Positions 9,970 through 64,000 of a stretch of DNA of 64,000 nt are shown here, in pieces. This DNA is from Candidatus Hecatella orcuttiae (GTDB lineage Archaea; Thermoproteota; Bathyarchaeia; Hecatellales; Hecatellaceae). Each line of letters opens with the position of its first letter. Position 1 is the stretch's first letter. Made by a program: the position numbers and the translations under genes. A model generated the notes under the pieces. The model was given only the letters and a program-made list of their open reading frames with translations. It was not told the origin of the DNA and ran no database searches. The stretch is taken from assembly GCA_002011035.2 (NCBI GenBank), contig MTLY02000002.1, positions 32,001 through 96,000 on the forward strand. Reading direction: 5' to 3'.

Positions 9970-9972
9970 AGG

Positions 9973-10272: not shown

Positions 10273-10276
10273 CTTT

Positions 10277-10519: not shown

Positions 10520-10719
10520 TCTTACACCACAAAGCCTTCGTTTGAAATGTTTTTTATCTAAAAGGAGATGAAGATATAAATTCTTCGCTCCCTTTTTCGG
10601 GAAAATGCAGGCGTATATACAGTTCAAAAGATGTTTACTTTCAAAATTAAAGGATAAACCATAAATGCGACATTAATGTACTATTTTCTCGAGAACAAAC
10701 AAAGGAAAAGGGAAGAGCA

Positions 10720-11549: not shown

Positions 11550-12025
11550 GCGAGGCTGCTGAAAAAGCTGAAGCCATGGTTACTGAGGATGTTAAATCTA
11601 AATTTGGTGATGCTGTTCTCCAAGCTGAAGTCCAGCGGAAAGGCAGAATAAGCATAAAAGTCAATAAAGACCGCCTAGCAGATGTCGCCAGATACCTGAA
11701 GGATAGCTACAACTTTGACCATCTGGCCTCTGTTTCCGGAACCGACTACCCTGACCGGAAGGAGTTCGAAGTCGTCTACCATGTCTGGTCCATTCCCCGG
11801 AAGATTCTGGCAGCCTTAAGAGTTTCCCTGCCCAGAGAAGACCCTCAACTGGACACGCTTATCCCTGTTTGGGAAGCTGCCAATCTTCATGAGAGGGAAA
11901 CCCATGAAATGTTGGGGATAAACTTCGCCGGTCACCCCAACCTTTCCGGGCTATTGCTTCCGGAGGACTGGAAGCAGATGCCTCCCCTGAGAAAAGACTT
12001 CAAACTACCGTCCAAGCCGAGGTAG
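11546..12025 (+). CDS. nuoC: Complex I-like subunit NuoC
   Basis: ERETHEMLGINFAGHP...PPLRKDF motif; TTG start overlapping the nuoB stop. Confidence 0.9.
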   Translation: MSEAAEKAEAMVTEDVKSKFGDAVLQAEVQRKGRISIKVNKDRLADVARYLKDSYNFDHLASVSGTDYPDRKEFEVVYHVWSIPRKILAALRVSLPREDPQLDTLIPVWEAANLHERETHEMLGINFAGHPNLSGLLLPEDWKQMPPLRKDFKLPSKPR

Positions 12026-12035
12026 GTGTGGCTCT

Positions 12036-13115
12036 ATGCCTGTCATGCGTGTGAAATTCGGTCCTCAGCACCCTATCAGCGGCCACCTTTGCCTTGCCCT
12101 TGACGTTGACGGGGATGTTGTGGTCAACATTGAGCCTGACATCGGTTACACGCATCGGGGATTGGAGAAGATAGCTGAAAACCGCAACTACGTTCAAGCG
12201 GTTCCCCCATTGGAGAGAGCTAACATCGTTGACTCGGTCCACATGGTTTTAGGCTATGTGGAGGCGGTGGAGGAGCTCATGGGGGTGGAGGTGCCGGAGA
12301 GGGCGAAGTTCATCCGGGTCATCATGGCTGAGATGAGCAGAATAGCCAGCCACCTCTACTGGCTTTGTTTGATGGCGGTGGCTGTGGGTTTGGAAACAAT
12401 GCTCATGTGGCCCATTAACGACAGGGAACTGCTCCTAGACCTCTTCGAGATGTATACGGGGGCGAGGATAACTCACTCTTTCTTCATCCCCGGAGGGGTT
12501 CGGCGGGACCTTCCTCAAGGCTTTAAAGAGCAAACCTTCAGAGCGCTGAGCTATCTGGAGCAACGGCTGGGCGATTATGACCGAATGCTTTACCAAAGCT
12601 ACACTTTCAAAATAAGGACCCAAGGAGTTGGGAAGCTTAAACCTCAAGAAGCCATAAAGCTGGGGTTGGTTGGCCCTTCTATCAGAGGGTCGGGGGTGAA
12701 GGTGGATGTGCGAAAAGATGAACCTTATGCTGCGTATGACCAGCTGGAGTTCACCGTGCCCACGGGGAAGGTGGGAGACTCCTACGACAGGTCTGTGGTG
12801 AGGCTTAGGGAAATGGAGCAGAGCATCTCCCTCATCCGCCAAGCGCTGGAGAGGCTTCCCAGCGGGCCCATTAAGGCTCCTGCCCCTTCCTCCGCTCCGA
12901 AAGGGGAAACTTATAGCAGAGTGGAGTCGGCTCGGGGGGAGTTGGGCTACTATCTGGTGGGGGACGGAACCACCCGGCCTTACCGTTTGAAGATAAGCAG
13001 TCCCTCTTTTAGAAACCTCCCTGCCATGGGTTATCTATCTAAAAATGTCCCCTTCGCGGACATACCCGTTATACTGTGGAGTCTAGACCTCTGGCCGTTG
13101 GACATGGATAGGTGA
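12036..13115 (+). CDS. nuoD: Complex I-like subunit NuoD (no NiFe-binding cysteines)
   Basis: GPQHP, GYTHRGLEK and ESARGE motifs; C-terminal DMDR; no CxxC motifs. Confidence 0.92.
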   Translation: MPVMRVKFGPQHPISGHLCLALDVDGDVVVNIEPDIGYTHRGLEKIAENRNYVQAVPPLERANIVDSVHMVLGYVEAVEELMGVEVPERAKFIRVIMAEMSRIASHLYWLCLMAVAVGLETMLMWPINDRELLLDLFEMYTGARITHSFFIPGGVRRDLPQGFKEQTFRALSYLEQRLGDYDRMLYQSYTFKIRTQGVGKLKPQEAIKLGLVGPSIRGSGVKVDVRKDEPYAAYDQLEFTVPTGKVGDSYDRSVVRLREMEQSISLIRQALERLPSGPIKAPAPSSAPKGETYSRVESARGELGYYLVGDGTTRPYRLKISSPSFRNLPAMGYLSKNVPFADIPVILWSLDLWPLDMDR

Positions 13116-13121
13116 AAAAGC

Positions 13122-14207
13122 TTGGTGGGGTTGGAGTCTCTGACGTTGCAGCTGTGGCAGCTCTGGCAGAGCGGCTACCTGACGGAGCTCTTCATCAAAG
13201 TCATCATCTTCCCAGGCTTAGTCCACATATCCCTTGTCGTGCTACTGGCTGTGTGGTTTGAGAGAAAAGTAAACGCGAGAATCCATCTTCGAGTAGGACC
13301 CTACCATGTAGGCCCGGTGATGGGCTTTTTCCAGCCTATCGCCGACTTCGTTAAACTGATAGGAAAGGAGCTCATCGTCCCTGAGAAAGCTCATAAGCTC
13401 CTTTACAAGACGGCGCCCATCTCCGCTCTAGCTCTTTCCACGTTGAGCTTCGCTTTCATTCCCTTCGGGGTCATCGGCTCGGAGATGAGTTTACCGTTCA
13501 TTCCCTTCCACCTAAGCCCCGGAGAATACTGGGTTGTCTACTACTCGAACATCAGCCTCCTCATCGTCATCCTGCTCTTCAGCGTGCGCCCTTTCATCAT
13601 CATAGCAGCCGGCTGGGCATGCCGGAGTAAATACTGCACCGTAGGCGCCCTTCGTACAGCTTTTCAGCTTCTCGCCTATGAAGTTCCCCTTCTAGTGGCC
13701 ATCGTCGGCGTCGTCATGGTGGCCGGGTCCTTCGACCTTGTGGCCATAATAGAAAGCCAGTCCTCCATTTGGCATGGAGTCTTTCAGCCTCTCGGCCTCG
13801 CTGTCTTCTTCGTCGCCATGATGGCGGAAGTGTCCCGGAGACCCTTCGACCTACCCCACGCTGAACAGGAATTGGTCTACGGCTGGGCTACGGAGTATCC
13901 CGGCGTCCTCTACGGATGCTTCATGATGGCGGAATACGTTGACCTGTATCTGGGGGCGGTGCTGATGACAGCTCTTTTCTTGGGAGGATGGCTAGGCCCA
14001 GCTTTCCTGCCGCCCATCGCGTGGTTTCTGCTGAAGGCTGGGATCATCGTCTGCATCGTCACCCTCCTCCGAGGAGTGTTCCCCCGGGTGAGAATAGACC
14101 AGCTTCTGGACGCAGGTTGGACGTATCTGATACCTCTGGCTCTTATCCAGGTGCTGATCATCCTAGGCCTCGCTCATGTGGCACCAGGCCTGCTGGGTTT
14201 GGCGTAA
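13122..14207 (+). CDS. nuoH: Complex I-like subunit NuoH
   Basis: ERK..ARIHLRVGP, QPIADFVKL and AEVSRRPFDLPHAEQEL motifs. Confidence 0.92.
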   Translation: MVGLESLTLQLWQLWQSGYLTELFIKVIIFPGLVHISLVVLLAVWFERKVNARIHLRVGPYHVGPVMGFFQPIADFVKLIGKELIVPEKAHKLLYKTAPISALALSTLSFAFIPFGVIGSEMSLPFIPFHLSPGEYWVVYYSNISLLIVILLFSVRPFIIIAAGWACRSKYCTVGALRTAFQLLAYEVPLLVAIVGVVMVAGSFDLVAIIESQSSIWHGVFQPLGLAVFFVAMMAEVSRRPFDLPHAEQELVYGWATEYPGVLYGCFMMAEYVDLYLGAVLMTALFLGGWLGPAFLPPIAWFLLKAGIIVCIVTLLRGVFPRVRIDQLLDAGWTYLIPLALIQVLIILGLAHVAPGLLGLA

Positions 14208-14233
14208 AATGGAAAAAGTAAGGTGAAAAGAAA

Positions 14234-14680
14234 ATGTCTTCCATCGTAAAGCCGTTGAAAGTTGTGCTGGAACATTTCCCAAAAAGAACCTTTACGGTCT
14301 TTCATCCCTATGAAGCTCTAAAGCTACCGGAAAGGTCTCGTGGCGGCATCCAGCTGGACATGGAAAAGTGCACTGGCTGCGGTGTATGCGCCTACATCTG
14401 CCCTAATGTAGCCATAGAACTGGTCACCAGAGGAGAGAAGAGATACCCCAAACTGGATTATGGAAGATGCTGCTTCTGCGCTCTTTGTGTGGACTACTGC
14501 CCTAGGAAGGCGCTGAAAACCACACCGGTACATGAGCTGGCGGAGTTCAGCAGAGCGGAGCTGGAATATCCCCCTGAACGCCTCGCTCAACCTCCGCAGA
14601 TAACCAAACCTAAGCCCGCCCCTCGCCGAAAAATTGTTTCCATAAAAAAGATCGACCAAAGGGGAGTTTCACACCACTAA
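14234..14680 (+). CDS. nuoI: Complex I-like subunit NuoI (2x[4Fe-4S])
   Basis: CTGCGVCAYICP and CCFCALCVDYCP motifs. Confidence 0.9.
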   Translation: MSSIVKPLKVVLEHFPKRTFTVFHPYEALKLPERSRGGIQLDMEKCTGCGVCAYICPNVAIELVTRGEKRYPKLDYGRCCFCALCVDYCPRKALKTTPVHELAEFSRAELEYPPERLAQPPQITKPKPAPRRKIVSIKKIDQRGVSHH

Positions 14681-22447: not shown

Positions 22448-22555
22448 ATGACCGTACATCAAATCATAGACGTAGTATATATTCTGTACGCGGTAGGCGT
22501 AGCGACATTTATGCTTCTCTATGTTCGCAAAATCACGCAGAAAGGAGGGGGGTAA
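22448..22555 (+). CDS. Unannotated 35-aa single-TM protein, probable small subunit (IIa-like) of the downstream heme-copper enzyme
   Basis: MTVHQIIDVVYILYAVGVATFMLLYVRKITQKGGG; first ORF after an AT-rich promoter; its 3' end contains the GGAGG RBS of subunit II. Confidence 0.65.
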   Translation: MTVHQIIDVVYILYAVGVATFMLLYVRKITQKGGG

Positions 22556-22559
22556 AAAG

Positions 22560-22982
22560 GTGGAGAAAGCGGAAAAAAGATGGCTGGTCATCTTAGTTGC
22601 CGTAGCAGTGGTCTTTAACGCTACAACGCTTTCTCCTCTAGTCCCTTGGCAAAACTGGCTTTTCTGGTCTCCGCCTACTCCAGTGGAAGAATTCCATATA
22701 AGGATGAAAAATTACACTTTCCAACTTCCCCCGGATGGGATAACAGTCCAAGTAGGTGAGCCTGTTAGGTTTATCGTGACGTCGGAGGATGTAACCTATG
22801 GTTTCGGAGTCTTCAGAGAGGATGGGAGCATCGTCTTCCAGATGCAGGTGCTCCCCGGGTATCGCAATTCGATCCTGTGGGTGTTCGATGAACCCGGCGA
22901 CTACACCATCCGTTCCACGGAGTACTCCGGCCCATACCATCCCCACATGGTCTTACCGAATGCCATTCGCGTGGTGGAGTGA
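22560..22982 (+). CDS. Heme-copper oxidase superfamily subunit II (cupredoxin) lacking CuA ligands
   Basis: One TM helix plus cupredoxin; DVTYGF and STEYSGPYHPHM replace DVxH and CxExCxxxHxxM. Confidence 0.85.
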   Translation: MEKAEKRWLVILVAVAVVFNATTLSPLVPWQNWLFWSPPTPVEEFHIRMKNYTFQLPPDGITVQVGEPVRFIVTSEDVTYGFGVFREDGSIVFQMQVLPGYRNSILWVFDEPGDYTIRSTEYSGPYHPHMVLPNAIRVVE

Positions 22983-22997
22983 GGTGGAGGCTTTCCC

Positions 22998-24587
22998 ATG
23001 ACCTATGAAAGGCTTACTCTGCGTTATGCGATAATCTCAACACTGTTCCTAGGCCTAGCTGGCATTGAAGGTTTGCTGATGAGGGTGCAACTGGTGAACA
23101 TTCCGTTGTTCGACTTCGAACACTACTACGCCATGCTGACCGTTCACCCGTTTGTGGGAATCTACGGATGGGCTTACTTGGGGGTGATAGGCGCCTTTTA
23201 CTATCTCGTCCCTAAACTCCTTAACAAACCCCTCTACAGCCTCAAGCTGGCCGACGTGAACCTGTGGACCTTCGTCGCAGGAGTGCTCATCGTTTGGTCT
23301 TCCGGGCTTCTCACCAAGTTCGGCTCCCTCTACACCCTCTACTGGCCGCTGCCTGTGGAGAGGTTCCCTCCCAACAGCGTAGTCTTTTTCTCCTCAGGCC
23401 TACTGCTCATAGAACTGTCGGTGTTGCTGTTCATCTTCAACATCTTCGCCACCGTTTTCAGCAGAAAAGGGGAGAGTTCGGGGAAAACCTTCAAAAGTCT
23501 TCTCTTATCCGCCTTCGGGCTTGAGGGTTTGTCCCAACGGTTCAGCATGGCCCTCAGCAAGTTGGGAGTAAAGTCTTCCAAGCGTATGTTGAACGGAGGC
23601 AGCGGCTCCAATCCTCAACCCATGCCTGTGTTTGTTGTGGCGGTGATGCGGGGAAGCGTCGACGCTGTTCTCAACGCGCTGGTTCTAGCTGGGGCAGGAG
23701 GCTTGCTGTTGGCTTTCAGCCTGCCGGCGCTTTTAGCCGGTGTGATGCTAAACCCTCTCATCGTCGACCCACTAGTCTACAAGAACGTGTTCTGGTGGGG
23801 TTTGGATATGATTGCCGACGGCGATGTTTTGATATGGGTGGCTGGAGCCTTGTATCTTCTCGCTCCTTTACTCACAAACCGGAAACTTTACGCTGAAGAT
23901 GTGGTGAGGAAGGTTATCCTAGCAGACCTTCTCATCTCCATGGGCGTGTGGAGCCACCATCTGATGTCCGACCTTCCCCAGCCTTCGTTTATGAGGCTGA
24001 TCTCAGGGCAGTTCATAACTTGGGGTGAGTTCTTCACCATGGGGCTGACGTTTTTCGCCGTCCTGATGACCGTCTGGCTGGCTCGGCCGGTTAAGCTAAC
24101 TATGCCTCTGAAATTCATGCTGGGGGGTATTTTCGGCTTCATGCTTGGAGGAGGTTCAGGGCTGCTTCAAGCCAACTACGCTTTGAACCTAGTCATGCAC
24201 AACACCCAGTGGGTTCCCGGATTCCACATTCACCAGATGGTGCTGGTGGGGTTAGGCGGCGTCATCTTCGCTGTCATCTACGCTCTTCTGCCCATGTTGA
24301 CAGGCACTGAGTTGAAGAGTCAGAAGCTGAGCAACCTTCACTTCTGGCTTTGGATGATCGGAGGCGTAGGTATGGCCTTTTCCATGGGGCTGGCGTGGAC
24401 GCCGGGTATGCTGAGGAGAACCCTCTACCCTGACACTACCATCTACCTGCCCTATATGAGCTCAGCCATGTTCTTTGGAATACTGCTCGCCATCGGATTC
24501 CTAGCCTTCATCATAAACCTCGTCCATACCTACGGGCTGCGAACACTGGTAGGACTCTTCATACCTCAGAGGAAAACCAAACCCTAA
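22998..24587 (+). CDS. Heme-copper oxidase superfamily subunit I, non-canonical (gNOR-like putative NO reductase)
   Basis: About 12 TM helices; LTVHP, WSHH, HNTQW..FHIH and GMLRR present; helix VI reads FWWGLDMIADG instead of W..HPxVY. Confidence 0.8.
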   Translation: MTYERLTLRYAIISTLFLGLAGIEGLLMRVQLVNIPLFDFEHYYAMLTVHPFVGIYGWAYLGVIGAFYYLVPKLLNKPLYSLKLADVNLWTFVAGVLIVWSSGLLTKFGSLYTLYWPLPVERFPPNSVVFFSSGLLLIELSVLLFIFNIFATVFSRKGESSGKTFKSLLLSAFGLEGLSQRFSMALSKLGVKSSKRMLNGGSGSNPQPMPVFVVAVMRGSVDAVLNALVLAGAGGLLLAFSLPALLAGVMLNPLIVDPLVYKNVFWWGLDMIADGDVLIWVAGALYLLAPLLTNRKLYAEDVVRKVILADLLISMGVWSHHLMSDLPQPSFMRLISGQFITWGEFFTMGLTFFAVLMTVWLARPVKLTMPLKFMLGGIFGFMLGGGSGLLQANYALNLVMHNTQWVPGFHIHQMVLVGLGGVIFAVIYALLPMLTGTELKSQKLSNLHFWLWMIGGVGMAFSMGLAWTPGMLRRTLYPDTTIYLPYMSSAMFFGILLAIGFLAFIINLVHTYGLRTLVGLFIPQRKTKP

Positions 24588-53000: not shown

Positions 53001-53774
53001 TTAGCTTACTCTCCTCCCACCCCATTCCTGCCTGTAATGGCACTCATAGCAGTTTTCACCGAATCTTTCCGCCCATTCCTCATGGCAATTGATACACACA
53101 TCAACACGGGGTTTTATCTTCTCAAAGCCGCCTTCAGTGTGGCAAAGATCACAGTCGATTTTAGAGTGAGGCGTTTCTGTGTGGAGATACGTGATCACAT
53201 GACATCGGTCACATTCGGCGAAGTTTAAGTTGCCATATTCATCAGGCAAATGCCCTATAGGTGAACCCCAATCTTCCCGAGGATGGCATTTGTAACAATT
53301 GGTGTCCATCATGTATTCTGGAAGATCCTCATGGCAGTGTATGCAAACATCCACGGTAGGCACCTCGATTCCAGGTCCATGCATACCATGGCATTGTCTG
53401 CAGGCGATCTCCGAATGAGCCTTAACCTCGTGAAGACTGTTTCGGAGATGACATTCTTCGCAGATGGCTGATATCTGAGGATTGGTAAAGTTTATGAGAA
53501 CAGGAACCTCGTATATGCCTAGAACATATCTTCCTACCATGATCACCGACTGGGGTCCGCTTTCATGGCACAGATGACACTCGACGAAACTTTGTCCGTG
53601 AACTGATATCTCCCAGTCCTGAACAAAAGGCTCCATTATATGACATGCGCTGCAGTAGCGTGGATTTGAGATGATGCCGGTCCCTATCTGGTAAGTTAAA
53701 ACCGTAAAAGTGAGAAAGCTGAAAACTAGAATCATAACTAGGGCAGTGATCCCTATTTTCGCCACTCGACGCAA
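53001..53774 (-). CDS. Membrane-anchored decaheme cytochrome c (NapC/NirT-like N-terminus)
   Basis: N-terminal TM helix and 10 CxxCH motifs. Confidence 0.9.
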   Translation of the reverse strand: MRRVAKIGITALVMILVFSFLTFTVLTYQIGTGIISNPRYCSACHIMEPFVQDWEISVHGQSFVECHLCHESGPQSVIMVGRYVLGIYEVPVLINFTNPQISAICEECHLRNSLHEVKAHSEIACRQCHGMHGPGIEVPTVDVCIHCHEDLPEYMMDTNCYKCHPREDWGSPIGHLPDEYGNLNFAECDRCHVITYLHTETPHSKIDCDLCHTEGGFEKIKPRVDVCINCHEEWAERFGENCYECHYRQEWGGRRVS

Positions 53775-54755: not shown

Positions 54756-55475
54756 TTGAAAGAACACACACCAGTTGTTATCGAGCACCTCGCCAAGCGC
54801 TACGGCTTTAGATATGCGCTCCTAGATGTTACGTTGAGCGTGGGCCGGGGAGAAGTTTTTGGCCTCCTCGGTCCCAACGGCGCAGGCAAAAGCACACTTT
54901 TGAAAGTGCTTGCCACACTGGTGTCTCCATCCGGCGGCTCTGTACTAATAGACGGCCTCAGCTTGAAGGATAGGAAGGTGGAACTCCGGAGGAGGATAGG
55001 CTACCTAGGCCACGAGCCTCTTCTTTACAGGGACCTAACAGGTGAGGAGAATTTGAAGTTCTACTATAAGTTCTACCATTCTTCGCCTCCAGAGTACGTT
55101 CAGGAAAAATTGGATGAGGTATTTGAGCTTTTGAGGATAGGGGGCTGGCGGCATGAACCTGTCAGAAACCTTTCCAGAGGATTTAAGAAGAGGTTCGACT
55201 TTGCCAGAGCCATCATTCATGATCCTGAACTTCTGCTTTTCGACGAACCTTTTTCAGGCCTTGACATGGAAAGCCTAGAGGTCGCCCGTGAATTTGTGCG
55301 AAGCATGGAAGGGGAAAAGACTATCATCATCTCCACCCATAACATCGAAGAAGCCAAGGAGCTTTGCAACAAGGCAGCACTCCTAGCAAAAGGGCGACTT
55401 ATCCGCTTGTTGGAGGCCGGCGATATAGACGAGGTAAGCCTCAAAGACGCCTTTAAGGGAGGAGCCGCCCGTTGA
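54756..55475 (+). CDS. ccmA: Heme exporter ABC ATPase CcmA
   Basis: GPNGAGKST, YLGHEPLLY.DLT..ENL, LSRG and DEPFSGLD motifs; overlaps ccmB. Confidence 0.85.
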   Translation: MKEHTPVVIEHLAKRYGFRYALLDVTLSVGRGEVFGLLGPNGAGKSTLLKVLATLVSPSGGSVLIDGLSLKDRKVELRRRIGYLGHEPLLYRDLTGEENLKFYYKFYHSSPPEYVQEKLDEVFELLRIGGWRHEPVRNLSRGFKKRFDFARAIIHDPELLLFDEPFSGLDMESLEVAREFVRSMEGEKTIIISTHNIEEAKELCNKAALLAKGRLIRLLEAGDIDEVSLKDAFKGGAAR

Positions 55476-56164
55476 CAAGCCAAACTCTCCATGAGTTAAA
55501 ATGCGCCATCTACGTTGCATCCAAGGATCTTCTGGCTGAGTTGAGGAGGAAGTATGAAGTTTTTTCCATGCTCACTTTTGCCCTGATCTCTATCATAATA
55601 TTCAACTTCGCCTTCGGGATTTTCTCTGCCGCAGTGCACCAAGCGGTTCCCGCCATAATATGGATAATAATTTTGTTCGCAGGAATGTTCGGTTTTTCCA
55701 CGGTGTTCACGCGGGAAAGCGATCAAGGCACGCTCGACGGCTTGAGAATGCTTCCCATCTCCTCCCAGTCCATATTCTTGGGGAAAGTGGTCTACGGCTT
55801 CCTTCTGATGGGAGTCATCGAGGTGATTTTTGTTCCTTTGAGTATGGTGCTTTACAGCTACACCTTCACTTCCAGTTTCCTATTAACAGGATTGGTTTTC
55901 GTCCTAGGAACGTTGGACCTCGCTGTTGTGGGAGCTTTGGTCTCGGGTTTGACGATGTATACGGAGTCAAGGGCTCTGCTGATTCCTCTGTTGATGTTTC
56001 CGCTGGTGCTGCCGGTAGTTATCCCCCTCGTCATTCTGACCCAGAAACTCATCCTTGGAGTAGAGTTCTATTCTGTGCTGCCTGAGCTGAGGATGGTGGC
56101 TCTCACTTTGGCGGCGCTGGCAGCCGCCGCTCTCCTGCTTTTCGACTATGTCCTCCAAGATTGA
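55472..56164 (+). CDS. ccmB: Heme exporter permease CcmB
   Basis: KDL.AELR, F.RE.DQGTLDGL and LIPLL.FPL..PV motifs. Confidence 0.88.
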   Translation: MTSQTLHELKCAIYVASKDLLAELRRKYEVFSMLTFALISIIIFNFAFGIFSAAVHQAVPAIIWIIILFAGMFGFSTVFTRESDQGTLDGLRMLPISSQSIFLGKVVYGFLLMGVIEVIFVPLSMVLYSYTFTSSFLLTGLVFVLGTLDLAVVGALVSGLTMYTESRALLIPLLMFPLVLPVVIPLVILTQKLILGVEFYSVLPELRMVALTLAALAAAALLLFDYVLQD

Positions 56165-56341: not shown

Positions 56342-57037
56342 TCACACCTCCTTTCCATATTTTACGGCCTCTGTTCTCTCCTCCATCCGAAGCAAGTCTA
56401 GGGTGATCCGGAAAAGCAAAACGTAGATCAACGTGACCGCAGCGAGGGCCACCATCAATGTGGCAACCATCGACCCTGTTATGAGTAAGCCCGTTGGTTT
56501 TATGACCACGGGGTGAAGCGTAAACCAGAGATGAACCGATAGATAGCTTAATGGCACAGTTATGAAGGCTACGATCCCCAACACAGCCGAAAGCCTCGCC
56601 CGCTTCTCCCTGTCTTCCACGGCCAGCCGAAAGGAAAGGTAAGCAACATAGACCAGCCAGAGGATAAGAGTGGTCGTCTCCCGTGGGTCCCAGTGCCAGT
56701 AGACCCCCCAAGCTGAACCAGCCCATAGAGACCCAAGTATCAAGGCCAGCCCACAGAAGACAACCCCCAACCTAGCTGAGGCGTCGGCGCAGAGGTCCCA
56801 GCCGCTTCGCCCGGTGCGCAGAAACATGAGACTTCCAACAAACGTAACCCCGAAGGCTAGGTAAGAAACCCACGCTGCTGGAACGTGAAGATAGAAAACT
56901 CTATAGAGCTCCCCCAACGTAGCCTCTGGAGGTGCGTAAAAATATGTGAGATAAATAGATAAAGCATTGAAGATAAAAACTAGGGGAAGGAATCCGTAGC
57001 GCCACAGAGCTTGACGGCGTTCTGAAACCACAACCAC
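56342..57037 (-). CDS. ccmC: Heme chaperone loader CcmC
   Basis: YLHVPAAW, WWD motif GSLWAGSAWGVYWHWDPRET and TLHP. Confidence 0.92.
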   Translation of the reverse strand: MVVVSERRQALWRYGFLPLVFIFNALSIYLTYFYAPPEATLGELYRVFYLHVPAAWVSYLAFGVTFVGSLMFLRTGRSGWDLCADASARLGVVFCGLALILGSLWAGSAWGVYWHWDPRETTTLILWLVYVAYLSFRLAVEDREKRARLSAVLGIVAFITVPLSYLSVHLWFTLHPVVIKPTGLLITGSMVATLMVALAAVTLIYVLLFRITLDLLRMEERTEAVKYGKEV

Positions 57038-57039: not shown

Positions 57040-58275
57040 TTATCCACTCCTCTTCTTCTGAGAATTATCTTCCTTTCCTCTCTTCAGTTTATTCAATTTT
57101 TTCTGAGCCTCCGTCTTACGGCTCTCATATCTGCGTATAAGCTGGACGTATACTTCTGGGGAGATAACTCCTAGCCTATAGTCAGACTCCAATCTACGGA
57201 GAGTAGCCTCGGAAGCCTGTAGCTCTCCTTCCAGTTGCATGATAGTTGAAACAGCCGATTTTACTCCCCCCTTTTTCCTTAGCATATTCAGATAAAGGGC
57301 AGCCACGCCTATAATAGCGATGACTCCCGACATCCAGAGAACAGAGTTGGCGATAAATCGAAGCTGAGATAAACCTGAAACCTTGACGATTATCTGGGAG
57401 CCGGCTTCCATCTTAGAGCCTAAAAGTGCTTGGTATACCTTGCCGTTCAACGTAGTTTCACCAGCGTTCTCCAACCCCTCCGCTTCCACTTCCACGCCCG
57501 GCTTCTTCTCCACCAGCACGTGGACTAGTTGGGTGGGATAGACTAGCTGTTTGGTGAAGACGCGCTCAGAGCGTTGGAGAGGGAGCTCGTATTCCACCCA
57601 TAACCTGTACTGACTGCCGGGATAAAGAGGTCCCATGGGGTCGAAGGTTACGGAGTCTTCGGAAGGAAACAGACAACAGTCCATCACGGGAGAGGTGAAG
57701 TTGTAGCGATCTGGGGGAACGTTTAGTCGTAGAGTACTGTTGGCGAAGACCAGCTCGCCCACGTTTTGGTAGACGAGAAGCTCGTAGACTCCTAAACGTT
57801 TCTCAAGGGGAGTTAGCAGTATGTAGTGGACGAGCACCCCAATGTCTTCGTCGCTGGATGTAACTTCGTAGACTATAAAGTCAGCCTGCACTGGCTCTTG
57901 GCCGTCTAACTTCACCATCTGAAAGTAGGGAACACCTTGATAAACAACCTCGATAACGAAAGTTTTGTTTACTGGCAAGGTTTCGAATTTATATTCACCC
58001 TCCCTGCCGGTAACCGTATCCGCAACGGTGATGAACTCGTCTCCGCGCAACTCTTTGAGTGAAACCTTTAAACCGGGAAGCGGGCCTGCTGAAGATGTTA
58101 CTTTCCCGACGATTACGCCGCTTTCCTCAGCGCCTTTTGCAACCTTTATGCCACTAAGACCGACGGCCATGATGGAGACCAGAAAAATAACCACTAACAA
58201 CTTGCTTAACCTGTTTGATGAGGAAACCGATCCCCAGAGACAAAGAGATGCCACCAAATCGTTTGTGAGACTCAT
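57040..58275 (-). CDS. Unknown secreted/membrane-anchored protein within the ccm operon
   Basis: Signal-like N-terminus, beta-rich (carboxypeptidase-regulatory/Ig-like) domain, C-terminal TM helix and coiled coil; start overlaps the ccmH stop and stop lies 2 nt before ccmC. Confidence 0.7.
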   Translation of the reverse strand: MSLTNDLVASLCLWGSVSSSNRLSKLLVVIFLVSIMAVGLSGIKVAKGAEESGVIVGKVTSSAGPLPGLKVSLKELRGDEFITVADTVTGREGEYKFETLPVNKTFVIEVVYQGVPYFQMVKLDGQEPVQADFIVYEVTSSDEDIGVLVHYILLTPLEKRLGVYELLVYQNVGELVFANSTLRLNVPPDRYNFTSPVMDCCLFPSEDSVTFDPMGPLYPGSQYRLWVEYELPLQRSERVFTKQLVYPTQLVHVLVEKKPGVEVEAEGLENAGETTLNGKVYQALLGSKMEAGSQIIVKVSGLSQLRFIANSVLWMSGVIAIIGVAALYLNMLRKKGGVKSAVSTIMQLEGELQASEATLRRLESDYRLGVISPEVYVQLIRRYESRKTEAQKKLNKLKRGKEDNSQKKRSG

Positions 58276-58775
58276 TTTTTCGCAACTCTTTCCCTAAACT
58301 TTTGGTATTCTTTCTCAAATATCTCATCGTACTTTGCCATGGCCGTCAGTAATTCCTCACTCTCATATTCTTCTTCCTCCAACTCCACATCGGAAGGTTT
58401 TCTATATGCTAAACGGTAAATTATGGCGGTTCCGCCGACAGCAGCTGCGATGGGAAGCACCCACAGCATTAGTTCTAAGCCGCTTTTCTGCGGGGTTGCC
58501 AGTATATTTTCCCCGTATATCATTTGAAGCTCGAAGATTATTTCCTCCTTCGTTTTCCCTTGACTTATCATCTGCTCTATCTGAGTACGCACCTTATAGG
58601 CGGTTTCACATTCACAGTCCGATAGAAGCATGGTACAGCCGCAGGGACACCATACACTGCGGGAAACCTCCTCCACTGTCGTTTTTACCTCTGAGGCTTG
58701 AACCGAGATCGGAAGCAACAGCAACCCGAATATGAAGACAAAGACTGCTATTTTTCTGGCGTTTTTCATCTTCAT
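58272..58775 (-). CDS. ccmH: Cytochrome c biogenesis protein CcmH
   Basis: CPCGC...A..VR.QI..MI..GKTKEEI...YGE.IL..P...LWVLP. Confidence 0.85.
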   Translation of the reverse strand: MKMKNARKIAVFVFIFGLLLLPISVQASEVKTTVEEVSRSVWCPCGCTMLLSDCECETAYKVRTQIEQMISQGKTKEEIIFELQMIYGENILATPQKSGLELMLWVLPIAAAVGGTAIIYRLAYRKPSDVELEEEEYESEELLTAMAKYDEIFEKEYQKFRERVAKK

Positions 58776-60739
58776 CGACCATTTCCCTTCAGGTCTTGGT
58801 TTTTCAGCACTGCTTTCTCGGAGCTGGTCATAGCAAATACTGTTGAAGCAAGCATCAGAAAAGCCCCGATCCATATGAGGTTCACAAATGGGAGTATTTT
58901 GACTTTAAAGGTGGCGTTATCCTCCCACACTTCTAAGGGGATAACGTAGAGATCCTTCAAGCCTACGGTATGGATGTGCACGCGTGTTATATATTGCTCC
59001 ATTTTTTCATAATATTCTATGGAAGGTGTTGCTTCATGTATCACCCGACCGTCTTTTAAAACTAGAAGAGAAACAGTGAAAACAGCCCGGTCGGCTTTCT
59101 CGCTCACTTTAACACCTTCGAAGGATAATGTGTACCCTTCTATGCTGTAGGTCTCTCCCCGACTGAGAGTAAACATACGCGAACTGTCATACACTGAGGA
59201 GGCTGTTATACCGACGAGTATGATTACGATGGAAATATGGACAAGGTATCCTCCGTAACGCCTTCGATTTTTCTGGACAGCACGCCAAAGATTTCTCACA
59301 TAACCGAAACCCTTGGTTTTACCCTCTGCCTTAATTCCCCTCCAAAACTCCAGCCCGTGAGAGGCTACCACGAATACGCATATAAACACCATAAGTAAAC
59401 CTACAAAATCCCGAATGCCGAGAAGAGGCGAGATAATCAAGCCTACCATGGATGCTACAATCGGCCAAGTGAAACTTCTTTTGAGACTGGCTATGTTTGC
59501 CCTCCTCCAAGCTATGGAGGGACATATCCCCATAAGGAAAATGAGGACCAAGCCTAAAGGCACAGTAACCTCATTGTAATATTCGGCTCCTATGGTCACT
59601 TGGAAACCTCGGAGGGCTTGGGAAATGAGGGGGAAAGTGGTTCCCACCAATATTACGACGGTTAAGACGACGAATAGGAGGTTGTTGAAGAGAAAGCTGA
59701 CTTCTTTTGAAAGAGACGCCTCAAAGATATTTCTGCTCCTGTAAACCTCATACTTGCTAACAAACAATCCCAGCGATGCAATTAGAGTGAGAACAATGAA
59801 AGTTGAGAAAAAGATCCCAATAGGCGACTCAGCGAAAGAATGAACCGAGGAGAGAATACCGCTTCTCGTCAAGAATGTTGCGTATATCACTAATATGAAG
59901 GTGAATGTTATAAGCAGAAAGTTCCATCTTTTCATGCCTCTTCTCTTTTCTTGTATCATAACCGAGTGGAGAAAAGCTGTGCCTACAAGCCAGGGCATCA
60001 AGGAAGCGTTTTCCACAGGATCCCAAGCCCAGTAGCCTCCCCAACCCAAAACACGATAAGCCCACCAGCCTCCTAAGACGATGCCTACACTCAAGAAAAT
60101 CCAAGCAGATAACGCCCATTTCCTAGAACGGTATATCCAGTGCTCATTTCCGGTTGCCAACCCTGCCATAGCATAGGCGAAGGGAATGGTGAAACCTGCA
60201 TAGCCTATGAGCAAAGTAGGCGGGTGGAAAATCATTCCAGGACTCCGAAGCAGAGGATTAAGGCCTAAGCCATCTACAGGCTTAAAGGAAAGCCTCTGAA
60301 AAGGGTTCGCCGCAAACATCAACGTAAATAGGAAAAAGAGCAGAGTTGCTGCTAGCGTGAGGGATTTGTAAATTGCGAATTCATCGTTTTTCTTATCCAC
60401 AAAAAGGGTTACCGCTGTGAACAGGGAAAGCGCCCAAGCCCACAGAAGAAGTGAACCCTCCTGTCCAGCCCAGAAGGCTGAGAGCGTGTATACCAAAGGC
60501 AGAGCTCTATTGGTGTGAGAAGCCACATACATGCTCTGGAAATCGCGAGTTACAAGTAAATAGAATAACCACAAGGCGGCTATGGTGATGAACACGCTGG
60601 CTAAGAGCAGAGCTCCCCTTCCAAACCTGATTAAACCCGGATGATTTTTTTTCAGGGATACACTAAACAGAATAATAGCGCAGAAGGTTGACAGGAAAGC
60701 CGATATCAGGCTTACGTATCCTATCATCCCTTTGCACAT
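58772..60739 (-). CDS. ccmF: Cytochrome c heme lyase CcmF
   Basis: FWAGQEGSLLLW, HPP, WGGYWAWDPVENASLMPW and TRSG...SVHSF motifs. Confidence 0.95.
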   Translation of the reverse strand: MCKGMIGYVSLISAFLSTFCAIILFSVSLKKNHPGLIRFGRGALLLASVFITIAALWLFYLLVTRDFQSMYVASHTNRALPLVYTLSAFWAGQEGSLLLWAWALSLFTAVTLFVDKKNDEFAIYKSLTLAATLLFFLFTLMFAANPFQRLSFKPVDGLGLNPLLRSPGMIFHPPTLLIGYAGFTIPFAYAMAGLATGNEHWIYRSRKWALSAWIFLSVGIVLGGWWAYRVLGWGGYWAWDPVENASLMPWLVGTAFLHSVMIQEKRRGMKRWNFLLITFTFILVIYATFLTRSGILSSVHSFAESPIGIFFSTFIVLTLIASLGLFVSKYEVYRSRNIFEASLSKEVSFLFNNLLFVVLTVVILVGTTFPLISQALRGFQVTIGAEYYNEVTVPLGLVLIFLMGICPSIAWRRANIASLKRSFTWPIVASMVGLIISPLLGIRDFVGLLMVFICVFVVASHGLEFWRGIKAEGKTKGFGYVRNLWRAVQKNRRRYGGYLVHISIVIILVGITASSVYDSSRMFTLSRGETYSIEGYTLSFEGVKVSEKADRAVFTVSLLVLKDGRVIHEATPSIEYYEKMEQYITRVHIHTVGLKDLYVIPLEVWEDNATFKVKILPFVNLIWIGAFLMLASTVFAMTSSEKAVLKNQDLKGNGR

Positions 60740-60751: not shown

Positions 60752-61141
60752 TTATTCCGAGGCCTCCGGAAGTTCTTCATATTTAGAAGGACACTTAACC
60801 AGCACTTTCTCAGCTTGGAGAACTGAATCTTGAAGGGTGCCGATCACCACAACTTCATTACCTTCTTGAAATCCTGAAGGATAAACTCCGAAATAGGTTA
60901 CCTCGATGGATGAGCGGTTGTCTGCAAGGATAAAAGTAAGAGTAGCTCCTACCCTCTCCACAGAGCCCTCCTTCACTATTCCTGTTACCTGAACCTGCCG
61001 CCCGTAATATTCGCTAGGCTTCTCCATCAGTTCAGAAACAGGGGTATAGGGTGTGATAGAACTTGTAAGCTGCTCATAAACTACGTAGCTACCTATTACC
61101 GCCAAGATAAGACAAAGCGCCACTATCCTCCGGGTCCTCAA
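60752..61141 (-). CDS. ccmE: Heme chaperone CcmE, CxxxY variant
   Basis: VLVKCPSKY heme-binding motif. Confidence 0.9.
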   Translation of the reverse strand: MRTRRIVALCLILAVIGSYVVYEQLTSSITPYTPVSELMEKPSEYYGRQVQVTGIVKEGSVERVGATLTFILADNRSSIEVTYFGVYPSGFQEGNEVVVIGTLQDSVLQAEKVLVKCPSKYEELPEASE

Positions 61142-61323
61142 GCTCGATACCCTACTTGTTTTAACATCGATATAATAGATATGAAAGTTCTTTTATAAAT
61201 ATTTAATAATCATATTTATTAAAATTTTTAATAATATTATTTATATATATATGTGCATAGAAAATTTTTTATCTTAATATTTAATAGTTATTAATTAAAT
61301 TAATTTAAAATCGAAGAAGAACC

Positions 61324-62415
61324 ATGCAACGCAAACTGAAAATCATTCAAATATCTACCGTATTCTTCATTCTTAACATATGCTTTTACCTTCTTTACAC
61401 CCTAGTCTTACGACCCTTCATGAACGCCCTTCCGATGGTGAGTAGAATCATTGCTTCAAACTTCCCCTTCTCAGCGAATCTTCCCTCAGCCTATTCACTT
61501 CAATTCTATGTGATAGCCTTCTACTTTTTCCTCATCACTGTTTTAGTACTGCTTTTCGCAGTGCATGTGCTTCTCGACACCGTGAAGAGGTGGAGGGAAG
61601 CCGAAAGTTTTCCCATAGAAACATCGAAAGCCAAGTTTGAGCGATTCTCCCTTAACCAGAGGCTTCAACACATCGTACTGATAGTGACCTTCACCATATG
61701 CGCTGTCACAGGCTTCGCTTTGAGATACTTCGACTCTTGGGGGGCCTTTGTGATTTACTTCCTAGGCGGACTTGAAGCGAGGCGGATAGTCCATATAGTC
61801 TCTGGCTTCACCATGGGCGGTCTAGCGATATACCACATGATCTATTACGGCCGCACCTTTTTCACCACGCACAAAAGGCGAGTTGAGATCATGTTTACCA
61901 AGAAAGATCTATCCAACTTAATAGCCAACATCAAATATCTCCTAAACTTAGCCAAAGAGAAGCCTAAATTTGGGCGATATAATTATATTCAAAAACTCGA
62001 TTATTGGGGTGTTGTATGGGGCATAGTGATTTTTGGTGCAAGCGGCATAGCCTTACTCTTTTTCAGGTCACCTTTTGGAGTGGGGATAGGGGCTCCTGAG
62101 CCTTATCTCCTCGTCGCCCTTCTGTTCCATGAAAGAGAAGCTGTTTTAGCCGTCTTAACTTTGCTGGTGCTCCATTTCTATTACTCCCACCTCAACGCTG
62201 ATGTTTTCCCCATGGATCGGGTGTGGATTACCGGAAGCGTGCCGGAAGAGATTATGCGCAGCGAGCATCCCTTAGAATTGGAGGGGATAAAAAAAGGTAA
62301 GGTAGAGCCGCCTCTTCCCCCTGTACCTTGGCAGTCCATATTTCTTACTTCCCTCATTCTGCTGTTCATCACCGTCATGATACTTTCATATTCGTATGCG
62401 CGGGGGTTGATATGA
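61324..62415 (+). CDS. Membrane cytochrome b (FdnI/HydC-like) with extra TM helices
   Basis: RFS..QRLQH, RIVH, YH, GRYNYIQK.DYW, HEREA.LA...LHFY and EHPLE motifs. Confidence 0.85.
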   Translation: MQRKLKIIQISTVFFILNICFYLLYTLVLRPFMNALPMVSRIIASNFPFSANLPSAYSLQFYVIAFYFFLITVLVLLFAVHVLLDTVKRWREAESFPIETSKAKFERFSLNQRLQHIVLIVTFTICAVTGFALRYFDSWGAFVIYFLGGLEARRIVHIVSGFTMGGLAIYHMIYYGRTFFTTHKRRVEIMFTKKDLSNLIANIKYLLNLAKEKPKFGRYNYIQKLDYWGVVWGIVIFGASGIALLFFRSPFGVGIGAPEPYLLVALLFHEREAVLAVLTLLVLHFYYSHLNADVFPMDRVWITGSVPEEIMRSEHPLELEGIKKGKVEPPLPPVPWQSIFLTSLILLFITVMILSYSYARGLI

Positions 62416-64000
62416 GAAATCTTAAGCATCTGACAGCAGGGCCAAAGATAAATAAGAGAGCGATGGCGGCTTTCTCGATCATTATTATTCTTTCTATCGC
62501 TTTTAACACAGCCTTCGCCTCAAAACCTTCTTTCCCCTCCCAATCTACCGCAGCTCCTCCCATGCCGGAAGACCATGAGGGACGTACCGTCTGTAAGGGC
62601 TGTCATGAAACGGGTGTAGCTGATGCTCCTCTTCTCCCCCCATCGCCTGATCACACAGTTTTCCCTGATGATTACGTGATGTGCAGTGGATGCCATGAAC
62701 TAGTTTTGTCGCCTACACCGTCCCCTACCATCGCAGTTACACCTTCACTTCCCCTGCCACCAGAAGAGTGTGGAGTATGCCACGAAGAGTACGAAGGATG
62801 GCAGCAGTCTATCCATGCTGAGAAAGGCGTCAACTGTCTTGTTTGCCATTCCGGCGTTGAAACCGTGCCTCACGAGGAAGTCGTAGTAGATCTGGCCGTG
62901 TGCAGTCAGTGCCATGGGGGAAGGTTTCAACTGGAAGTCATCAGCATCACTTGTAACTCATGTCACGATCCCCATAGTCAGACTTTGGAGGTTGAAGTCG
63001 CTAAGCTATGCAGTCGCTGCCATTCAGAGGAGTACCAGCGATGGAGTGACTCTGCTCACGGTTTGGCGGGAGTGGCCTGCGAGAAATGCCACCGTCATGC
63101 AGAGGTGGGGCACGTGCACAGGTTGGTAGAGGTCAGTTCTGTCCTTTGTGGTAGTTGTCATGTCGAGCAGTACCGGCTTGAGATAAAGCACGACATCAAC
63201 TGTGCTGACTGCCATGAACCTCACAGCCAAGACTTGAGAAAGAAGGTGCCGGAGTTATGCGATAGATGCCATGACGACATATATCGAGATTGGAATATGT
63301 CCCCTCACAAAGTAGAAGGAGTCTCATGCGACGTATGTCATCCTCATGCAGAAAGCGGCCATGTTCACAGGTGGATCAACGCCTCCTCTGCCGCTTGCGG
63401 ACAGTGCCATAAAACCTTTGAAGAATTAAGCGAATCGAAAATGGCTGTGTATGATATCACATGCACCAACTGCCATAACCCCCACTCCCAGGAAATTAGG
63501 ACCCCCACTGTTTCCACCCTCTGCGGGCGCTGTCACAATCAGACCACAAGTCCAGAATACTATTTCTGGAATGCCAGCGTCCATAAGGCTGTGGGAGCAA
63601 GTTGTGAGACATGCCACATGTACTCTGAAGGAGAGCGGTTCAGGCATAACTTTACTCAACCTCTCTTAGAAGAAGCATGTGAGCAGTGTCACGCGATCCT
63701 ACCTTCGGGAGAGTTACATGCCCTTCAGTACAGGACTGAGTATGAGATCAAGAAGGCTGAGGAGAAAATAAGGGCGGCTGAAGGAGTTATCGCCAAGGCC
63801 AAATCTGTCTTCAAAGTAAGTGAAAAAGACCCTCTAATGGTGAAAGCTGAAAGCATGCTGGCTGAGGCTGAACACATACTGGAAATGGTGAAGAATGAGA
63901 AAAGTCGAGGGTTCCATGCACCCATACTTACTCACATGCTTATATCCCAAGCCTTTAACTTGGGAGAGCAATCTCAGCGCATAGCTTTGGAGCTGGCGGG
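62412..64000 (+). CDS. Large multiheme cytochrome c (>=17 CxxCH), 3'-truncated; not in the ORF track
   Basis: ATG overlaps the cytochrome b stop; signal/TM segment; 17 CxxCH motifs by manual translation; helical C-terminal region with EKSRGFHAP; no stop before the window end. Confidence 0.9.
   Translation, partial: MRNLKHLTAGPKINKRAMAAFSIIIILSIAFNTAFASKPSFPSQSTAAPPMPEDHEGRTVCKGCHETGVADAPLLPPSPDHTVFPDDYVMCSGCHELVLSPTPSPTIAVTPSLPLPPEECGVCHEEYEGWQQSIHAEKGVNCLVCHSGVETVPHEEVVVDLAVCSQCHGGRFQLEVISITCNSCHDPHSQTLEVEVAKLCSRCHSEEYQRWSDSAHGLAGVACEKCHRHAEVGHVHRLVEVSSVLCGSCHVEQYRLEIKHDINCADCHEPHSQDLRKKVPELCDRCHDDIYRDWNMSPHKVEGVSCDVCHPHAESGHVHRWINASSAACGQCHKTFEELSESKMAVYDITCTNCHNPHSQEIRTPTVSTLCGRCHNQTTSPEYYFWNASVHKAVGASCETCHMYSEGERFRHNFTQPLLEEACEQCHAILPSGELHALQYRTEYEIKKAEEKIRAAEGVIAKAKSVFKVSEKDPLMVKAESMLAEAEHILEMVKNEKSRGFHAPILTHMLISQAFNLGEQSQRIALELA

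Follow-up and report, generated by a model that had tools for sequence, protein, structure and literature searches.

A 17-haem cytochrome with repeated NrfA-type modules, encoded beside a hydrogenase-type cytochrome b in a Bathyarchaeia genome, as a possible membrane-to-surface electron conduit

We analysed a window of 64,000 nucleotides (nt) from Candidatus (Ca.) Hecatella orcuttiae (assembly GCA_002011035.2, contig MTLY02000002.1, positions 32,001 to 96,000), which is G000:C2:32001-96000 of a genome (G000) of 1.75 Mb in 3 contigs. At its right end lies the gene for a 17-haem c-type cytochrome, P0002 (62412..64000, + strand, continuing 112 nt beyond the window to G000:C2:96112), preceded by a gene for a dihaem cytochrome b and followed, just past the window, by a gene for an OcwA-like cytochrome, P0003. 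The P0002 frame opens with the ATG at 62412 and holds 529 stop-free codons inside the window; a further 37 codons follow before the stop at C2:96112, which gives a protein of 566 amino acids (aa). This protein contains exactly 17 CxxCH motifs, no CxxCK and no CX3-4CH. All 34 Cys residues are inside the haem motifs, and 23 of the 40 His residues are outside them, 22 of these after the signal peptide. The initial annotation, which was made from the window alone, had listed 17 CxxCH motifs and no CxxCK in 529 codons without a stop. Translation of 62412-64000 (+) yielded the same open frame and every listed motif in the same order, and the extension to the stop codon that it had proposed left the count at 17 and CxxCK absent from the full 566 aa.

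The sequence of the locus was reproduced in independent material. Five forms of P0002 in public collections were 100% identical to it over all overlaps, with called starts that differed (M1, M18, M51, M296 and M403). Across eight studies, nine DNA runs contained the stretch, three of these runs being possible sources of it. Single contigs of runs X4 (2758 nt) and X5 (2720 nt), from two other studies, covered the entire cytochrome b gene and P0002 to 41 nt short of its stop, with 0 letter differences and 0 gaps. Contigs from four runs ended or thinned near both AT-rich spacers (L003 248-440 and 3160-3370). The frameshift or stop on resequencing that the initial annotation had named as a possible refutation did not appear, and the other, full-length similarity to a characterised enzyme family, was not found either, as only the tail end of NrfA was matched. 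Its term "unannotated" was half right: no name is listed for the protein, but the exact protein is present in public collections (NCBI, UniRef, JGI and others).

Hydropathy analysis of P0002 detected two hydrophobic helices only, one of signal type at residues 17-35 and a C-terminal transmembrane helix at 538-556. The signal peptide region covers residues 1-36 (62412..62519, +), where the hydrophobic core at 17-35 is followed by AFA/SK, and a putative cleavage site can be read off there. Since a signal-type helix is combined with a single C-terminal helix, the mature protein is expected outside the membrane and held at its C terminus. C-terminal anchors are common among archaeal c-type cytochromes in general, according to the portion of the source consulted (PMC4429474). 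An N-terminal dihaem domain (residues ~50-96; 62559..62699, +), with haems at C61 and C91 and conserved His55 and His81, is followed by a Pro/Ser/Thr linker (residues 100-117, SPTPSPTIAVTPSLPLPP; 62709..62762, +) that holds S/T-P-S/T triplets; both elements had been proposed in the initial annotation. The dihaem unit, P.DH.GRT.C..CH ... PDH ... C..CH, recurs in the database proteins P0156-P0158, P0175 and P0189, which carry 2-4 copies of it between long Pro/Thr/Ala linkers. These proteins appear to form a beads-on-a-string cytochrome family, to judge from their letters, and no named family matched them in our scans.

The remaining 15 haems are arranged in 3.75 duplicated four-haem modules behind the tethered dihaem head. 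Repeat alignment delimited module A (residues 116-195; 62757..62996, +), module B (196-278; 62997..63245, +), module C (279-366; 63246..63509, +) and a partial module D with three haems (367-445; 63510..63746, +), the last two of which align with NrfA haems 4 and 5. Modules A, B and C are mutually 40-48% identical, with local alignment z of 8.5, 9.0 and 16.1 (the last for B against C, at 47.6% identity), in a test with 300 shuffles per comparison and the C..CH letters fixed in place; none of the 300 shuffles reached these scores. Partial module D gave z of 3.7-6.7 against A-C, and the N-terminal head was unrelated to the modules (z -0.8 to 0). These results bear out the repeated unit of three copies and a partial fourth that had been described from the window. 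A count of free His, also suggested there, gave 22 after the signal peptide for 17 haems; module A has 3 (135, 154 and 188) for 4 haem sites and no Met, and there are 2 to spare in module B and 1 in module C. The four-haem module was also detected at 29-43% identity in three short metagenome proteins, namely P0116 and P0117 (10 CxxCH and one CX4CH, a PT linker and a C-terminal helix) and P0122 (7 CxxCH, a helical tail and a C-terminal helix). On sequence grounds the module is regarded as NrfA-derived, since module D runs into an NrfA-type tail.

This tail (63705..64000, +) is a three-helix region with helices at 432-465, 474-495 and 504-562 and the motif SRGFHAP. Pfam Cytochrom_C552 (PF02335) matched P0002 380-522 at profile positions 229-377 of 438, with 70.5 bits against a cut-off of 24.1. 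NrfA of Desulfovibrio vulgaris (2J7A) aligned with P0002 379-528 (E value 5.9e-12), pairing CETCH and CEQCH with the NrfA motifs CADCH and CRQCH, and SRGFHAP with SVGFHNP; a second stretch, P0002 257-310, was weak (i-Evalue 9.4). Pfam Cytochrome_C7 and Cytochrom_c3_2 gave repeated matches along P0002. An AlphaFold2 model from a 78-row alignment had a mean predicted local distance difference test (pLDDT) score of 66 and a predicted template modelling score (pTM) of 0.45, with pLDDT of 80-97 at ~350-566, which includes the tail, and about 40-50 at 40-115 and about 250-350. In this model the third tail helix is continuous with the membrane helix 538-556, located beyond the window end. The best fold matches were the nitrite reductases 8RV0, 6V0A and 1QDB (Z 13.0-13.3, root-mean-square deviation (rmsd) 2.3-2.7 A over 193-195 residues, model 338-534), followed by OcwA (Z 11.0, rmsd 2.2 A, 153 residues), MccA (Z 10.8) and OmhA 6QVM (Z 9.8), and Foldseek agreed (2J7A, E 1.4e-4). 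Although Z values below about 13 may often arise between helical bundles, we trusted the fold match because the haem-binding part was also covered and the sequence matches agreed. The ESM Atlas model (pTM 0.51) had generic multihaem neighbours at TM 0.37-0.45, some of them cytochrome b fusions, which serve as leads only. The Pfam match, the 2J7A alignment and the fold comparison all sustain the NrfA-like helical tail with SRGFHAP that the initial annotation had seen.

Close relatives of P0002 were scarce. In a word-indexed search of 5.8 billion proteins, only its own cluster exceeded 37% identity, and the next match was at 26%. Exhaustive HMMER searching of 1.84 billion representatives returned 781 matches at E<=1e-3, of which only P0002 itself and P0116 reached E<=1e-30, and no full-length relative was found among them. 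P0002 stayed below the curated cut-offs for the DmsE/MtrA decahaem family (TIGR03508, 95.5 bits vs 192.2), GSU2203 (65.1 vs 325), the NCBIfam NrfA equivalog (31.4 vs 595) and TIGR03152 (23.9 vs 692.5). None of 40 relatives had a match at E<=1e-5. In a class sample of 401 genomes, 15 including G000 matched at E<=1e-6; the best non-self match had E 2.3e-13 and 30% identity over P0002 197-528, and the matches that reached the tail (P0002 about 193-541) were open reading frames (ORFs) of 465-537 aa encoding 8-haem NrfA-tail proteins. Searching genome and metagenome contigs with tblastn, own-genome records excluded, recovered no relative, and 28 and 39 pattern matches were rejected.

The cytochrome b gene (61324..62415, +) encodes a dihaem cytochrome b of the hydrogenase / formate-dehydrogenase type, of 363 aa with about 7 membrane helices by hydropathy. 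Its TGA stop overlaps the P0002 ATG by 4 nt (ATGA; gene end ...ATATGA). The protein scored 50.1 bits against Ni_hydr_CYTB (PF01292), exceeding the cut-off of 30.1, and stayed under the equivalog cut-offs for FdnI (50.3 vs 115.85) and hydrogenase cytochrome b (29.5 vs 121.5). His116, 157, 171, 269 and 284 are invariant across 7 aligned family members, and these five residues would suffice for two b haems. No hydrogenase genes flank the gene in G000. A word-indexed search with the protein returned only four other clusters, and in P0272 (607 aa) and P0101 (602 aa) an N-terminal multihaem domain is fused to a cytochrome b of this family. Complex prediction for cytochrome b, 4 haem and P0002 340-566 gave scores of 0.23 and 0.03, where the mark was 0.32.

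A total of 185,579 species genomes were scanned with a pattern from a 5-row cytochrome b alignment, and the best 80 of 350 relatives were kept. These were mostly from Ca. Methanoperedens, with others from Bacillota, WOR-3, Nitrospirota, Kryptonia and further groups. Among these best 80, 76 had a same-strand ORF with at least three CxxCH within 300 nt of, or overlapping, the cytochrome b gene. In the three top-scoring loci (two Nitrososphaerota and one Hydrothermarchaeota), [NiFe] hydrogenase small and large subunits surround cytochrome b; the fourth exception, L079, has little upstream flank and a multihaem ORF 318 nt away on the opposite strand. Long multihaem ORFs were found in some of the loci: ORFs of 635-656 aa with 18 CxxCH lie 20-93 nt after the cytochrome b relative in L084, L095 and L106, and ORFs of 800-820 aa with 17 CxxCH overlap it in L085 and L111. 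The hosts of these five are WOR-3, Kryptonia and Bacteroidota, and the long ORFs are without the NrfA tail motif and weakly P0002-like; long wires beside this cytochrome b family seem to have arisen more than once.

In a phylum sample of 401 genomes, 19 including G000 had this cytochrome b family at E<=1e-15, and none of the 18 other loci had a multihaem neighbour. The best 12 of these loci comprised 7 with a hydrogenase small subunit upstream and 5 with a C_GCAxxG_C_C protein bearing two CxxCH. In the latter (L131, L132, L134, L136 and L137, from the Thermoproteota genomes G628, G503, G653, G482 and G618), a C_GCAxxG_C_C protein of 344-425 aa precedes cytochrome b and would add a third type of partner for the anchor. 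Within the class sample, the only cytochrome pairing was in G108, where a 5-haem ORF ends 2 nt before cytochrome b. A quick maximum-likelihood tree, from which the split copy L033 was left out, placed the G000 cytochrome b with two Nitrososphaerota hydrogenase anchors (Shimodaira-Hasegawa-like approximate likelihood ratio test (SH-aLRT) 98, long branches). When G000 was held with the 78 multihaem-linked rows, which include L079, the approximately unbiased (AU) test did not reject the arrangement (log-likelihood difference 9.78, p 0.313). Because of this result, independent recruitment of the G000 cytochrome b was lowered to a possibility. These data show that the cytochrome b is a hydrogenase-type anchor whose family is repeatedly coupled to multihaem cytochromes.

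Only three ORFs in G000 hold at least three CxxCH, namely P0002, P0003 and a 10-haem protein; all lie within 13 kb, beside ccm genes. P0003 (L002:2267-4150 = G000:C2:96266-98149, +, 627 aa) lies just past the window. Its residues 32-519 matched OcwA of Thermincola potens (PDB 6I5B) with E 3e-35. The portion of the source consulted describes OcwA (accession 6I5B) as a nine-haem cell-surface terminal reductase for solids, whose three-helix bundle is NrfA-like and in which His-His motifs cover two open-coordination haems, and gives its nitrite and hydroxylamine reduction as slow, with a kcat of 1 per min (PMC6703420). P0003 resembles OcwA over its full length and has HH motifs, one of which (232/233) aligned to an OcwA HH motif, while the other (351/352) was 3 residues off; the nine CxxCH of OcwA are replaced by 7 CxxCH and an unusual CX5CH (CGQAIGCH) at a site that is CxxCH or CX4CH in relatives. 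To this P0003 adds about 75 C-terminal residues matching coiled-coil families, including the S-layer (surface layer) stalk protein SlaB (E 1e-4, weak), and a final membrane helix at 605-623 by hydropathy. P0003 thus looks like a surface reductase on a stalk, as far as its letters tell. The spacer between P0002 and P0003 measures 153 nt and opens with a T8 run, after which come AT-rich, TATA-like stretches.

Taking the C-terminal anchor of P0002 with the gene overlap to cytochrome b and with the OcwA-like neighbour, we arrive at a specific hypothesis of a membrane-to-surface conduit. P0002 and cytochrome b would form a two-gene membrane module in which P0002 is the electron-transfer subunit that faces outward, a reading to which we assign a probability of roughly 55%. 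P0002 most likely would serve as a wire for respiratory electrons between membrane and cell surface. Hydrogenase and formate-dehydrogenase small subunits are anchored by a C-terminal helix and dock on their cytochrome b. P0002 would take their place and dock in the same way; since cytochrome b lies between the small and large subunits in hydrogenase-linked loci, P0002 is where a C-terminally anchored redox subunit is expected. Cytochrome b would swap electrons with a lipid-soluble membrane carrier and pass them to the membrane-proximal haems 15-17 of P0002, whose haem chain would carry them across the space under the S-layer, to P0003 on its coiled-coil stalk and/or to outside acceptors via the tethered dihaem head. 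Electron flow inward through P0002 would be equally possible; function, direction and haem ligation of P0002 are what we infer here. In solved haem wires the haem spacing is about 1 nm. With such spacing, the 15 haems of modules A-D as a rod would measure about 12 nm, and the 75-residue coiled coil of P0003, at 0.15 nm per residue, about 11 nm; from these two figures, which are arithmetic and not evidence, the far end of P0002 and the stalked P0003 head could meet.

We also formulated a bolder version, which we regard as doubtful. In it, P0002 would be a rigid 15-haem rod of ~12 nm with a flexible dihaem head, grown by accordion-like duplication of an NrfA-derived module to span exactly the gap between membrane and S-layer, and it would link a cytochrome b taken from a [NiFe] hydrogenase to an OcwA-type reductase on an equally tall stalk. 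Bathyarchaeia would thereby have their first complete membrane-to-surface conduit, recruited independently of the Methanoperedens and bacterial versions. If true, mineral respiration or electron exchange with partners would be open to a highly abundant subsurface archaeal group.

Several observations weigh against the conduit hypothesis. The multihaem partners in most related loci stand upstream of cytochrome b and have 5-9 haems. These partners are only weakly P0002-like (best E 8.7e-11), so that the association of cytochrome b with multihaem genes is one of kind, not of orthology. The nearest relatives of the cytochrome b serve hydrogenases, not cytochromes. The T8 run and TATA-like stretches of the spacer mean that P0003 may have its own promoter and be transcribed separately. 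With 3 free His for 4 haems, module A may contain one haem without bis-His ligation. The elongated haem wire by internal duplication that the initial annotation had proposed fares unevenly: the duplication is established statistically, and the rod shape is still something we infer, because the AlphaFold2 model is unreliable in the middle, over much of modules A-C. Furthermore, no match to the menaquinone families MqnA/MqnD was found in G000, other quinone pathways not being searched.

The module A deficit is also the starting point for reading P0002 itself as an enzyme, in which one haem without a distal ligand would be catalytic and the others would feed it. Module A, with its three free His (135, 154 and 188) for four haem sites and no Met, would offer such a site, and catalytic CxxCH haems without a distal ligand occur in the NrfA/OcwA superfamily (source consulted in part, PMC6703420). 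However, P0002 has no CxxCK, its 22 free His outnumber the 17 haems and modules B and C have His to spare; its score of 31.4 bits is far from the NrfA equivalog cut-off of 595, and the matches to NrfA, octahaem nitrite reductase (ONR), OcwA and MccA cover ~338-534, that is, the electron-transfer haems and helices, and not the catalytic end. Since CxxCK is absent and only the electron-transfer end of NrfA is matched, we consider a catalytic role of P0002 very improbable. The main alternative is that catalysis resides in P0003. Cytochrome b and P0002 would then form a quinol dehydrogenase and delivery chain in the role of NrfH or NrfB-NrfCD, P0003 would reduce a soluble substrate such as nitrite or hydroxylamine, or soluble nitrogen or sulfur oxyanions, and the system would serve respiration or detoxification and not solids or partner cells. 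P0003 belongs to the NrfA/ONR/OcwA fold family and keeps the HH pairs 232/233 and 351/352, and the 10-haem protein of the island has a weak NrfH-like start. NrfH has 4 haems and NrfB 5; against these, a 17-haem chain, a tethered head and a stalked partner exceed the needs of a local enzyme, and P0003 is possibly on its own promoter. OcwA reduces nitrite and hydroxylamine slowly, but is itself described as a surface terminal reductase for solids in the portion of the source consulted (PMC6703420). Taken together, we judge delivery to a soluble-substrate reductase unlikely.

It is also conceivable that the adjacency of the two genes is incidental. P0002 would then be a free-standing, membrane-tethered electron store or relay fed from elsewhere, for example by the 10-haem protein, and cytochrome b would serve another partner. 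The genome does have this second possible quinol-oxidising cytochrome, the closest cytochrome b relatives work with hydrogenases, and C-terminal anchors are general on archaeal c-type cytochromes (PMC4429474, consulted in part). But the stop and start codons of the two genes overlap by 4 nt, no hydrogenase genes lie beside cytochrome b in G000, 76 of the best 80 (of 350) related loci pair cytochrome b with multihaem genes, and fused forms exist. An incidental neighbourhood therefore seems a distinctly remote prospect to us, and we favour P0002 as the partner subunit of cytochrome b.

The cytochrome genes are embedded in an island with a set of ccm genes. On the - strand lie ccmE (60752..61141; CcmE, 8.6e-25), ccmF (58772..60739; CcmF_C, 2.6e-54), ccmH (58272..58874; CcmH, 1.7e-18) and a gene for a ccmC-type haem exporter / assembly protein (56342..57034; Cytochrom_C_asm, 8.1e-35), and on the + strand ccmA, for an ABC ATPase, and ccmB (54756..56161; family scan). 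Between ccmE and the cytochrome b gene is a divergent, very AT-rich intergenic region of 182 nt (61142..61323), a probable promoter region. The 10-haem cytochrome (53001..53771, -; 256 aa) carries a single membrane helix at its N terminus, resembles NrfH/TorC weakly at its start (33.2 bits vs a cut-off of 134.2), and would be a possible second quinol-oxidising entry point; a gene for an ArsR-type regulator stands directly upstream of it. Inside the ccm operon, 57040-58275 (-) encodes a 411-aa membrane protein with a CarboxypepD_reg-like match (28.4 bits vs a cut-off of 32.3) and a coiled-coil tail. In G248, the ORF preceding ccmF (L025:917-2584; 556 aa) is also CarboxypepD_reg-like and under the cut-off, at 29.6 bits; a conserved archaeal ccm-associated protein may be present at both loci. 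Directly after P0003 lies hemA, for glutamyl-tRNA reductase (L002:4196-5545, +). At E<=1e-20, hemA was found in 0 of the 5 most complete same-family genomes, in all of which the control gene was detected; the capacity to make tetrapyrroles may have arrived, or been retained, together with the cytochrome genes.

CcmF was found in none of 40 relatives. The class sample gave CcmF in 35 of its 401 genomes, G000 among them, with 28 scoring above the cut-off; the matches were concentrated in families f14 (20 of 71) and f16 (8 of 16), and none fell in the 13 other members of the family of G000. Other ccm-bearing Bathyarchaeia differ in the adjoining cytochromes: beside ccm, G103 encodes an 8-haem NrfA-tail protein and one with 12 haems, and G248 a multihaem-iron-sulfur-NrfD module and a Rieske/cytochrome b pair. 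Foreign origin of the island was considered from its composition, but a GC content of 0.47 against 0.518 for the genome is too weak, with 24 of 245 windows as low, and so is the tetranucleotide distance, with 29 of 245 windows equally distant. Synteny gave no island borders, as two same-family genomes shared only the control gene with the region.

Other respiratory and C1 genes were seen nearby. At 4491-14677 (both strands) lies a complex-I-like (Fpo/Nuo-type) set in two divergent clusters. It comprises subunits A, B, C, D, H and I together with three antiporter-like ones, and the window shows neither an NADH- nor an F420-input module. At 22521-24584 (+), a gene for a cupredoxin-type subunit II-like protein (153 aa) accompanies one for haem-copper oxidase subunit I (529 aa; COX1, 1.9e-62). 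The latter is far below all NCBIfam equivalog cut-offs, the genome otherwise looks equipped for anaerobic C1 metabolism, and the oxidase may be an O2 or NO reductase. Downstream, L002:13552-17156 (+) carries an mtr-like membrane methyltransferase gene row, as read from ORF translations with no family scan. G000 gave no McrA match. Among the 120 best matches to the neighbouring arginyl-tRNA synthetase, eleven bear an organism name, namely nine from Bathyarchaeota, Bathyarchaeia or Bathycorpusculaceae, one from Nitrososphaerota and one from Methanocella, which serves as a partial check on the placement of G000 in Bathyarchaeia.

In anoxic sediments and the subsurface, Bathyarchaeia rank among the most abundant archaea, and models usually cast them as fermenters or acetogens. 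The presence of ccm genes, hemA, cytochrome b with a 17-haem partner and an OcwA-type reductase in one genome makes a testable case for respiration to the cell exterior. P0002 itself offers a natural example of haem-wire lengthening by tandem NrfA-derived four-haem modules, and of an NrfA helical bundle converted to a membrane anchor; as an observation from a single genome, this would carry moderate weight. Iron-reduction marker genes have been assigned to Bathyarchaeota at the level of read counts (source consulted in part, PMC13212322), and the portions of the literature searched described neither a 17-haem cytochrome nor a pairing of cytochrome b with a multihaem protein for Bathyarchaeia. 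Repeated-module haem wires, cytochrome b-multihaem quinol oxidases and OcwA-type surface reductases are already known kinds. New here are the build, in which a dihaem head on a tether precedes 3.75 four-haem modules of NrfA derivation and an NrfA bundle has become a membrane anchor; the pairing of P0002 with a hydrogenase-type cytochrome b; and the occurrence in a Bathyarchaeia family whose other sampled members are without ccmF, P0002 and this cytochrome b family.

Among known systems, the N-terminal part of P0002 recalls PgcA of Geobacter sulfurreducens, in which haem units are tethered by Pro/Thr-rich linkers; P0002 has one such dihaem head, and P0157, P0158 and P0189 are strings of tethered units. 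In contrast, the PgcA domains are monohaem and PgcA is secreted, the comparison being one by description and not by sequence. For the S/T-P-S/T triplets of PgcA, metal-oxide binding has been proposed in the source, consulted in part (PMC5732950). With NrfA and octahaem nitrite reductases, P0002 shares at ~338-534 the fold, the last haems, the W..S.H..G..C motif and the three helices with S.GFH.P. Thus the C-terminal three-helix bundle with GFH.P is present, whereas the catalytic CxxCK haem, a full-length match and any match to the N-terminal catalytic half are absent, and 12 extra haems lie upstream. In P0002 the third helix leads on to an anchor in the membrane; NrfA, a soluble protein, docks instead on NrfH or NrfB. 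The dodecahaem GSU1996, with c7-type domains, and the 16-haem HmcA, with c3-type domains, are modular haem wires formed by domain repetition. P0002 is likewise a long haem chain made by tandem duplication of a small module, but its module is four-haem and of NrfA type, and the protein is membrane-anchored and archaeal. OcwA (6I5B) resembles P0003 by sequence, and both OcwA and OmhA (6QVM) resemble P0002 by its tail only; P0003 differs from OcwA in having 7 CxxCH and one CX5CH instead of 9 CxxCH, and in its coiled-coil stalk and membrane helix.

The proposed partnership with cytochrome b is closest in function to CbcL and Mco, for which a quinol:cytochrome c oxidoreductase joined to a wire is known and has been proposed, respectively. 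CbcL of Geobacter sulfurreducens is an inner-membrane quinol oxidase, in which a multihaem c domain is fused to a HydC/FdnI-type cytochrome b. P0002 and its cytochrome b contain the same two building blocks, and the fused proteins P0272 and P0101 share the cytochrome b family of G000, at 24-25% identity to the G000 protein. Unlike the single polypeptide of CbcL, the G000 system consists of two genes, cytochrome b first, with a stop codon between them, and the c-type part, P0002, has roughly double the length and brings a C-terminal anchor of its own as well as the NrfA tail. Mco of anaerobic methanotrophic (ANME)-2a/2b archaea is a proposed methanophenazine:cytochrome c oxidoreductase, in which a VhtC-type cytochrome b is followed by a 7-11-haem cytochrome, as described in the portion consulted of a source that also cites CbcL of Geobacter (PMC9012536). 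The Mco cytochromes have 7-11 haems where P0002 has 17, and their hosts are Methanosarcinales and not Bathyarchaeia; the G000 cytochrome b groups with Nitrososphaerota hydrogenase anchors and not with VhtC, in a comparison that contained no VhtC, McoA or McoB sequence. The likeness lies in the arrangement: as in Mco, a Ni_hydr_CYTB-type cytochrome b gene stands directly beside a multihaem c gene that replaces the hydrogenase subunits, and the archaeal host also possesses ccm genes and an Fpo-like complex.

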